Of a stretch of DNA of 32,882 nucleotides, positions 7,560-8,327 are shown one piece after another. Below the pieces are notes generated by a model. It did no database searches and had not been told where the DNA came from. It was given only the letters and a program-made list of their open reading frames with translations. The stretch is from IMG/VR virus record IMGVR_UViG_637000265_000004. One strand, 5' to 3'. Both the position numbers and the translations under genes were made by a program. Position 1 is the first letter of the stretch, and each line of letters begins with the position of its first letter. This DNA is from a virus (lineage: Duplodnaviria; Heunggongvirae; Uroviricota; Caudoviricetes).

Positions 7560-7839
7560 AAGGAAACAAAACAGAAACAGCAATTGCCGTTACCTGTTGT
7601 TACCATGGCAAGTAAACGTATCTCAGGCGAGCGCATTGCGCCGTTCTGACGCAGATAAATTAGCCTGGATAGAAGGTGCTGGCAATAAAAAATAGCGTTT
7701 TCTTATCGGTATCGGTAAGATTGCTGCGGGTGCTTGAGGCTGTCTGCCTCGGGCATGCCACTGTAAGGCAGACAGAGAAAAGCCCCAGTTAACATTACGC
7801 GTCCTGCAAGACGCTTAACATTAATCTGAGGCCCAATCT

Positions 7840-8052
7840 ATGTCTCACAAATGTAGGTTAGCCTCTTACGTGCCGAAAGGCAAGGAGAAGCAGGCTATGA
7901 AGCAGCAAAAGGCGATGTTAATCGCCCTGATCGTCATCTGTTTAACCGTCATAGTGACGGCACTGGTAACGAGGAAAGACCTCTGCGAGGTACGAATCCG
8001 AACCGGCCAGACGGAGGTCGCTGTCTTCACAGCTTACGAACCTGAGGAGTAA
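7840..8052 (+). CDS. mok: Mok-like overlapping reading frame of the hok locus
   Basis: ORF starting 57 nt upstream of hok in the same frame, as in hok/mok/sok loci. Confidence 0.5.
   Translation: MSHKCRLASYVPKGKEKQAMKQQKAMLIALIVICLTVIVTALVTRKDLCEVRIRTGQTEVAVFTAYEPEE
7897..8052 (+). CDS. hokD: Hok/Gef-family type I toxin (HokD/RelF-like)
   Basis: 51-aa peptide MKQQKAMLIALIVICLTVIVTALVTRKDLCEVRIRTGQTEVAVFTAYEPEE; transmembrane helix plus conserved C-terminus. Confidence 0.85.
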   Translation: MKQQKAMLIALIVICLTVIVTALVTRKDLCEVRIRTGQTEVAVFTAYEPEE

Positions 8053-8119
8053 GAGACCAGGCGGGGGAGAAATCCCTCGCCACCTCTCATGTGTCAGGCA
8101 TCCTCAACGCACCCGCACT

Positions 8120-8143
8120 AAACCCGCTTCGGCGGGTTTTTTG
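8120..8143 (+). terminator. Rho-independent terminator / hok mRNA 3' fold
   Basis: AACCCGC-TTCG-GCGGGTT followed by TTTTT. Confidence 0.7.
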
Positions 8144-8327
8144 TTGCGTGCTGAATACGCAGGGTGAAAAATAACCATATATTTGATTATATACACAACA
8201 AAAAATAAAAGTCATTGTACTTGCACATTAAACAATCAAATATACGGCGTGAAATAAATATTTATCAGATTAATATTTTTGTCTCTATGTGGATATAACC
8301 GTTTGTACTTATAAACCTGGAGGCATC

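Follow-up and report, generated by a model that had tools for sequence, protein, structure and literature searches.

Hok/mok/sok loci are type I toxin-antitoxin modules, and the one considered here lies in a viral DNA record (IMGVR_UViG_637000265_000004, Caudoviricetes) that was analysed over its full 32,882 nt, hereafter the window. Among its described relatives, the hok/mok/sok (parB) locus of plasmid R1 is plasmid-borne, with proven post-segregational killing, which a preprint likewise treats as established (bioRxiv 10.1101/2025.08.07.668861); the same source catalogues Hok homologues in about 80% of Enterobacteriaceae genomes. The regulatory model applied below is the R1 model, as laid out in a published summary (PMC9841398). 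The hokW-mokW-sokW locus of the Stx2 phages 933W and Sakai prophage 5 (Sp5) acts as toxin and antitoxin: sokW RNA, a 71-nt complementary sequence, and hokW mRNA were both probed by northern blot, and mutations in the sokW promoter, at its -10 element, generate an arabinose-dependent, HokW-dependent growth defect that is partially rescued by sokW supplied in trans (PMC8621323). E. coli K-12 carries hokD (relF) in its Qin prophage, downstream of relBE, and hokC/mokC/sokC (gef) is a chromosomal locus.

The locus in the window is, with a probability of about 0.88, a complete hok/mok/sok module of the hokD/hokW subgroup that would be regulated as in plasmid R1. The hok/mok type I locus that had been called here in a first-pass annotation, made from the letters alone, thus holds up: every family-defining feature that can be tested in sequence is present, with covariation support. 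To hokW-mokW-sokW the DNA identity is 92.5% over 400 nt; HokW and the window Hok share 47 of 51 residues, the promoter hexamers, spacer and hairpin stem of sokW are those of the window Sok, and mokW is a 70-codon frame in register with hok, as in the window. The two loci differ in the C-terminal tail of the toxin (TAYEPEE in the window against VDYESEK in HokW), in the GC-rich terminator of the window locus, which 933W lacks, and in their situation, hokW lying in an inducible phage, close to its right end, and the window copy in the nin region of a decayed prophage. With R1 the correspondence is one of architecture, element for element (tac/fbi, 5' hairpin, ucb, a mok Shine-Dalgarno sequence and ATG at -57, dcb, 3' hairpin). 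The Sok promoter of R1 is in the same place (TTGCGC-17-TATCCT), its 5' hairpin is longer and its Sok hairpin shorter than those of the window; the toxins have diverged, the published identity to R1 Hok of the near-identical HokW being 44% (PMC8621323). The hokC/mokC/sokC locus has the same elements and ~75% DNA identity over the whole mRNA, with mok in frame with hok in intact copies, as in the window, a shorter Sok hairpin and the Sok promoter TTGACC-18-ACTCTA; at K-12 hokC, a downstream insertion sequence (IS) removes fbi.

The alignment with hokD/relF that the first-pass annotation had suggested is the most instructive. The K-12 Hok protein (open reading frame (ORF) in L008) is identical to that of the window at 51 of 51 residues. 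Over window 7883-8145, which has the hok ribosome-binding site at one end and the terminator at the other, K-12-type hokD has 98% DNA identity. Upstream of that ribosome-binding site everything is replaced by relB-relE: K-12-type hokD has no tac, ucb, mok start, Sok RNA or Sok -10 element, the 3' end of relE sits where tac, ucb, the mok start and Sok RNA would be, and homology with the window begins only at 7883. Assignment of the window locus to the K-12 type was rejected, its leader being intact and its upstream neighbour a DUF551 gene rather than relBE. Judged by these alignments, the window holds the complete, unrearranged form of what K-12 keeps as a fragment. The relB-relE-hokD arrangement is also present in a Kluyvera sp. 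assembly (L029), and another locus (L045) shows further damage in the region of the hok start.

The comparative evidence comes from a scan of species-representative genomes that yielded 53 loci (Escherichia, Shigella, Kluyvera, Photorhabdus, Pantoea, Erwinia, Citrobacter and others), to which 933W, a Rac-type phage, an R1-type plasmid locus and an intact hokC locus were added; 42 distinct loci from six genera plus the R1-type plasmid make up the alignment, A2, onto which the window fold was mapped. Near-identical E. coli-type hok sequences also came up in records of unrelated taxa: Acinetobacter idrijaensis and Xanthomonas pisi, on very short contigs (275 and 431 nt) that look like assembly contamination, and the Actinobacillus phage vB_Apl-pPE4, where 97% identity along 481 nt is unexpected given the host.

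The 51-codon toxin frame, whose product is MKQQKAMLIALIVICLTVIVTALVTRKDLCEVRIRTGQTEVAVFTAYEPEE, matches Pfam HOK_GEF (PF01848) with E=1.2e-23 (82.9 bits, cut-off 22), in agreement with the Hok/Gef-family toxin of 51 amino acids (aa) called in the first pass. No NCBIfam model passes its cut-off for the toxin, and the name hokD therefore rests on identity to the K-12 protein; hokD is also the PGAP label of the coding sequence. The Hok frame is conserved across genera, with synonymous variation, and its Shine-Dalgarno sequence is part of a CAAGGAG that is conserved in A2. The overlapping upstream Mok frame was also called correctly: it is collinear with annotated mokW, and the GAGG upstream of its start is conserved across the aligned loci. 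Of the 42 loci, 31, the R1-type locus included, start mok at -57 from hok, in the hok frame and with a common stop, and 10 start it out of frame, at -56 or -58; an ATG-initiated frame reads across the hok start in 41, L032 being the exception, with no ATG-initiated candidate. The in-frame arrangement of the window copy is the common one. A further observation on the toxin gene is that TACGAA at 8035-8040 (+), which covers the Tyr47 codon of hok, is invariant as DNA in all 42 loci, synonymous positions included. It is at this motif that A-to-I editing of hok mRNAs by TadA (Tyr to Cys) has been reported; a TadA editing hairpin around it was considered and rejected, the local fold being no better than that of shuffled sequence (z=+0.41), and no structural claim is made.

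The 5' end of the hok mRNA is placed by converging comparisons. Position 1 of the Rfam model RF01794, to which we return below, maps to 7728, and a -10-like hexamer lies 6-7 nt 5' of the conserved GGGUGC end, where interlocus homology begins exactly in a four-way alignment. The counterparts of this hexamer are TAGAAT in 933W and Rac, TATAAT in hokC and TATGAT in the R1-type locus. No convincing -35 element was found upstream of 7716, and the hok promoter is therefore probably weak; hok promoters are described as weak, which would fit an absent -35. Both the hok and the Sok promoter are retained on comparative grounds only. The block common to thousands of loci in E. coli genomes, plasmids and phages spans window ~7720..8141, whereas the stretch 7560-7719 is found in only 26 of 5426 E. 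coli genomes. The start of the locus had been set at 7600, which is too far upstream: the module runs from ~7716-7720, at the -10 box, and its transcript from ~7728, and 7600-7715 is prophage-specific flank outside the module, in which inspection for an element of its own turned up only unsupported short ORFs and no RNA family. At the other end, the 3' fold and terminator proposed in the first pass are both present. A bidirectional terminator-like element, with a 13-bp stem and A-runs and T-runs on both sides, separates the DUF551 gene from the hok promoter, and weak minus-strand Rfam matches at 7520-7630 were discarded as driven by it. A match to isrK at 8061-8142 (+), below threshold (E=2.8e-4, with 30.6 bits where the gathering score is 50), was likewise rejected; it covers the hok 3' hairpin and terminator and is likely a mere hairpin-plus-terminator resemblance, isrK being a Hfq-binding small RNA (sRNA) of Salmonella prophages.

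A 417-nt RNA starting at 7728 is predicted to fold with -178 kcal/mol (z=-6.9), and none of 100 shuffled sequences folds as well. In the thermodynamic prediction for the full-length RNA, GCC/CCAG pairs with CUGAGGC and the mok GAGG is held by GCCCC at 7782-7786. For an RNA truncated beyond the 3' hairpin (7728..8092), prediction pairs tac with AGCCCC and mok GAGGC with GCCUC at 7861-7865. This predicted refolding follows the conformations described for R1 hok mRNA (PMC9841398). A candidate for the metastable 5' hairpin, in which tac pairs with the sequence next to it on the 3' side (positions 4-13 with 19-28), is seen in the centroid of the truncated fold, whereas the first 73 nt have a different minimum-energy fold. 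The inverted repeat that had been noticed in the leader is genuine, with perfect 10-bp arms, although it starts at 7740 and not at 7738.

Across the 42 loci, 85.7% of cells are paired, against 40-46% in slid controls, and 40 pairs have changes on both sides, a number reached in none of 500 shuffles; these pair counts lean somewhat toward structure, the fold having been derived from one member of the alignment, but the margin is nonetheless large. The tac/fbi helix is 90.7% paired (one of its pairs is U-A in 27 loci and C-G in 12), and in almost all intact loci the 5' end has its best partner 45-50 nt past the hok stop. Compensatory changes convert GGGUGC/GCACCC into GGGCGC/GCGCCC in Photorhabdus and GAGG/CCUC into GAGA/UCUC in Kluyvera, and R1 also has such changes. 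In the 5' leader hairpin, which is 88.5% paired, both sides have changed at 4 pairs, and a G-C to A-U swap is visible against 933W; in the 3' hairpin, which is 95.9% paired, both have changed at 3 pairs. The boxes that exchange partners in the predicted refolding vary little: GCCCC of ucb is invariant or nearly so, and GCCTCTTAC at dcb is almost invariant.

A Sok-like antisense RNA had been expected on the minus strand over the mok start and had been thought not directly visible. The expectation is borne out by a candidate gene at that place, and the gene can be located, through homology: the misc_RNA annotated as sokW in 933W (L002, minus strand, 1559..1629) corresponds to 7848..7778 base for base. 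The two RNAs are identical at 64 of 71 positions; of the seven that differ, one is in the hairpin loop and the other six are within the first 16 nt, where the 5' recognition tail and the mok start lie. In the predicted fold of the window Sok, an unpaired 5' tail is followed by a long hairpin (7834..7783) and by GGGGCUUUU, which ends at 7778; the single-stranded tail is complementary to the mok start. A check for a minus-strand sigma-70 promoter, which the first-pass annotation had proposed, gave a divided answer, the consensus scan making no call and comparison with 933W/Sp5 pointing to TTGCCT-17-TAACCT, which precedes the G at 7848. The TTG of the -35 element is invariant in 42/42 loci, the spacer is 17-18 nt and the aligned -10 element reads TAxxxT in 33/42, hokC-type loci having ACTCTA or AGTCTA in this register. 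The Sok hairpin helix (A2 columns 73-126, window 7782-7832) has 6 double changes and no one-sided (G-U) change, unlike most other helices of the mRNA. Such Watson-Crick-only variation in the helix shared by the hok leader and Sok would fit a constraint on the structure of either strand; no G-U intermediates are expected where a stem has to form on both. At the level of sequence, then, the Sok gene of the window copy is identifiable.

The Rfam family named 'sok antitoxin (CssrC)' has a different relation to the locus. RF01794 matches 7728..7902 (+) over its full model (1-157) with 118.1 bits (gathering score 59, E=8e-28); the match runs from tac to the hok start on the sense strand and corresponds to the leader of hok mRNA, not to the antisense Sok, although Rfam types the family as gene/antitoxin. 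In Shigella flexneri 301, cssrC was first reported as an sRNA with no ORF predicted, and gives a ~340-nt northern band on the same strand as its flanking genes (PMC3071730); the window hok, like cssrC, is on the strand of its neighbours. The published band most likely represents the processed hok mRNA of the window locus or its orthologue, being nearer in size to the predicted truncated form (about 355-365 nt) than to the full-length RNA (about 415 nt), which is not the same as a mapped 3' end. Since a sense band of this size fits processed hok mRNA, RF01794 'sok' describes the sense leader and not the antisense RNA. Window 7208-8749 has a counterpart of 99.2% identity in a segment of a S. flexneri chromosome (L011). 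The sRNA gene cssrB lies ~17.5 kb from cssrC in strain 301 and adjoins SF2022 (PMC3071730). The window has a full-length CssrB match at 30071-30253 (+; 151.6 bits), beside an ipaH-type gene on the opposite strand that encodes an E3-ligase effector with NEL plus LRR_TTSS domains; the layout is that of cssrB/SF2022.

On the R1 model these parts would act together as follows. A weak promoter would give a ~415-nt hok mRNA in which tac pairs with fbi and ucb holds the mok ribosome-binding site, pairings that are predicted here; owing to both, the full-length RNA would be neither translated nor bound by Sok. Slow trimming from the 3' end to the stable hairpin at 8060-8081 would strip fbi, upon which tac is predicted to switch to ucb and the mok ribosome-binding site to dcb; mok, and by coupling hok, would then become translatable. 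The 71-nt Sok, transcribed from its promoter inside the leader, would bind the mok start region through its complementary 5' tail, and the Sok-mRNA duplex would be cut by RNase III. Should Sok synthesis stop, the stable mRNA pool would give rise to the 51-aa membrane toxin.

Features of the hok/mok/sok locus and of the surrounding prophage (window coordinates)
Feature	Position	Strand	Basis or remark
hok locus	7716-8142
Putative hok -10 box, TAAGAT	7716..7721	+	Alignment with other loci
hok mRNA, full length (inferred), ~415 nt	7728..8142	+	Rfam model start, terminator, fold, conserved block
tac (translational activator), GGGUGCUUGAGG	7728..7739	+	Pairs with fbi in full-length RNA, with ucb after 3' truncation
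5' leader hairpin, 10-bp perfect arms, CTGTCTGCCT...AGGCAGACAG	7740..7775	+	Inverted repeat, predicted folds
Sok antisense RNA gene, 71 nt	7848..7778	-	Collinear with annotated sokW; fold z=-5.1
ucb / anti-Shine-Dalgarno box, AGCCCC	7781..7786	+	Pairs with mok ribosome-binding region in full-length RNA, with tac in truncated RNA
mok Shine-Dalgarno, GAGG	7828..7831	+	8 nt 5' of mok ATG; sequestered in predicted full-length fold
mok reading frame, 70 codons	7840..8052	+	ORF list; same frame and stop as hok
dcb box, GCCUC, inside conserved AGCCUCUUAC	7861..7865	+	Pairs with mok GAGGC in truncated fold
Sok promoter: -35 TTGCCT, 17-nt spacer, -10 TAACCT	7883..7878 (-35); 7860..7855 (-10)	-	Identical to 933W/Sp5 here
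hok Shine-Dalgarno, AAGGAG	7882..7887	+	9 nt 5' of hok ATG
hok toxin gene, HokD-type, 51 aa	7897..8052	+	Pfam match, identity to HokD
Stable 3' hairpin, expected 3' end of processed (active) mRNA	8060..8081	+	-18.8 kcal/mol, z=-4.9
fbi (fold-back inhibitory) element, CCUCAACGCACCC	8102..8114	+	Pairs with tac in minimum-energy fold
hok mRNA intrinsic terminator	8120..8142	+	Scan: 8-pair stem (8120-8139), 4-nt loop, T-run (8137-8142)
IS3-type transposase genes, first ~3.4 kb	1-3400		Several IS3-family pairs in place of immunity region
DnaC-like gene	4151-4897
DUF977 gene, then HNH gene	4912-6426
DUF551 gene	7088-7522		Gene upstream of hok locus
Bidirectional terminator	7527-7559
83-codon ORF	8289-8540		Cut by IS1
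First IS1	8542-9310		Starts 400 nt beyond hok terminator
DUF1367, YbcO, DUF1133/Q-type antiterminator	9389-10829
Four tRNA genes (Met-CAT, Arg-TCT, Thr-TGT, Gly-TCC)	11019-11329	+	Just after Q-type gene
Integrase-like gene, 534-aa tyrosine-recombinase-like ORF	11444-13048	+	Where lysis genes expected
Further IS elements	14198-17170
Tail-fibre fragments	16860-18702
sitABCD-like operon, four genes, ABC-3/ZnuA-type metal transporter	18903-22352	-	Among tail-fibre fragments and IS elements
IS66-type unit	24586-27225		ORFs 24586-25260, 25257-25604, 533-aa transposase 25624-27225 (only transposase scanned)
ipaH	28287-29942	-

The element that carries the locus is a decayed Rac/Qin-like lambdoid prophage in a Shigella-type chromosome, and hok is in its nin region, a placement that recurs in E. 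coli AVS0790 and in a Rac-type phage. The prophage remnant recognised in the first pass is documented by the DnaC-like, DUF977, HNH and DUF551 genes upstream and by the DUF1367, YbcO and DUF1133/Q-type genes downstream. Among the ORFs scanned downstream of Q, no holin or endolysin family was found. The three IS1 copies of the window (8542-9310, 14198-14966 and 23443-24211) are 99.6-100% identical, the first being inverted with respect to the other two. With the first of them starting only beyond the hok terminator, the module has been left untouched.

Several points weigh against the case for a complete, R1-like module. Its equation with cssrC of strain 301 is by gene order. The -10 hexamer of Sok matches just 3 of 6 consensus positions and is under the scan threshold, and neither promoter, that of hok or that of Sok, came up in a simple sigma-70 consensus scan; the NCBIfam Hok models match the toxin, yet under their curated cut-offs (48.5 bits against 73). 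Chromosomal hokA, hokB and hokC are reported to show neither post-segregational killing nor a response to rifampicin (bioRxiv 10.1101/2025.08.07.668861), so that an intact sequence is no proof of activity.

As to what the module does, addiction to, or maintenance of, the element that carries it would be the default role for the family, and because the locus sits in the nin region of an IS-decayed lambdoid prophage, that of a selfish addiction or maintenance module for this prophage region is most likely its role here. The reported inactivity of hokA, hokB and hokC for post-segregational killing is also what lends substance to a serious, though unlikely, alternative, in which the locus is complete in sequence and functionally silent, a chromosomal relic that is transcribed, cannot kill, and, like the hok loci of K-12 and the ECOR strains, is kept only by slow decay. 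Heavy decay of the surrounding prophage by IS1, IS3-type and IS66 elements would be in keeping with such a relic, as would the hok promoter without a recognisable -35 and the decayed hok copies in relatives (leader deletions in L007, a hok frameshift in L049, K-12-type hokD without the whole leader). Every element of the window copy is, however, undamaged, the nearest IS1 keeping a distance of 400 nt from the terminator, unlike the insertion that removed fbi from K-12 hokC; the Sok promoter hexamers and hairpin stem are those of the functional sokW, and a sense transcript has been detected in S. flexneri 301 (PMC3071730). That the locus is only a non-coding sRNA gene, CssrC, and no toxin-antitoxin system at all is barely credible: the initial report without a predicted ORF (PMC3071730) and the Rfam typing as gene/antitoxin speak for it, but the RNA holds a Hok frame conserved with synonymous variation across genera, and ~340 nt fits a processed hok mRNA and not a 71-nt Sok.

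Stabilisation of the remnant and phage exclusion, the roles named in the first-pass annotation, are both plausible for the family, and roles in the phage cycle have also to be weighed. As an abortive-infection or phage-exclusion module, the locus would respond to an infecting phage that shuts down host transcription: Sok would be depleted and Hok released before the phage cycle is completed. According to the preprint, over-expressed R1 hok/sok excluded T4 (a result that it cites) and hok loci are enriched fourfold in prophages, but hok is not enriched near defence systems (bioRxiv 10.1101/2025.08.07.668861); the single-copy dosage of a chromosomal locus may, moreover, be too low, and we consider this role improbable. 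A phage-lysis helper modelled on hokW-sokW of Sp5, in which SOS induction makes Sok fall and Hok rise, aiding lysis and phage release, takes its appeal from the halving of Sp5 phage release upon deletion of hokW-sokW (PMC8621323) and from the 92.5% DNA identity of the window locus. The place on the phage map differs, however (nin region as opposed to near the right end of 933W), and what follows the Q-type gene is tRNAs, an integrase-like gene and IS elements. An element that has lost its immunity region and has no lysis family among the scanned ORFs is unlikely to release phage, and the chance that its hok locus assists in doing so is very small.

The module is already known: it is an ordinary complete copy of a type to which thousands of E. 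coli genomes give the annotation hokD, and its 426-nt unit is matched in 5426/5426 complete E. coli genomes, the median number of places in each being four. Within the hokD/hokW type, the leader changes fastest at the mok start, which doubles as the Sok 5' tail (7836-7847), with a mean column identity of 0.71 against 0.9 or more across most of the neighbouring leader. A tentative, rather speculative reading is that variation of the Sok tail reflects selection for mutually orthogonal antitoxin specificities among co-resident hok/sok copies, and that the window copy specifically retains a decayed prophage with virulence cargo (sitABCD, ipaH).

Beyond correct annotation, the importance of one more copy of a textbook regulatory RNA system is small. 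Exact coordinates can be given to Sok, mok and the RNA elements, where automated pipelines list the toxin coding sequence only, and pipelines using RF01794 would put 'sok' on the wrong strand. If active, the module would help to explain why a decayed sitABCD/ipaH prophage persists in Shigella-type chromosomes.

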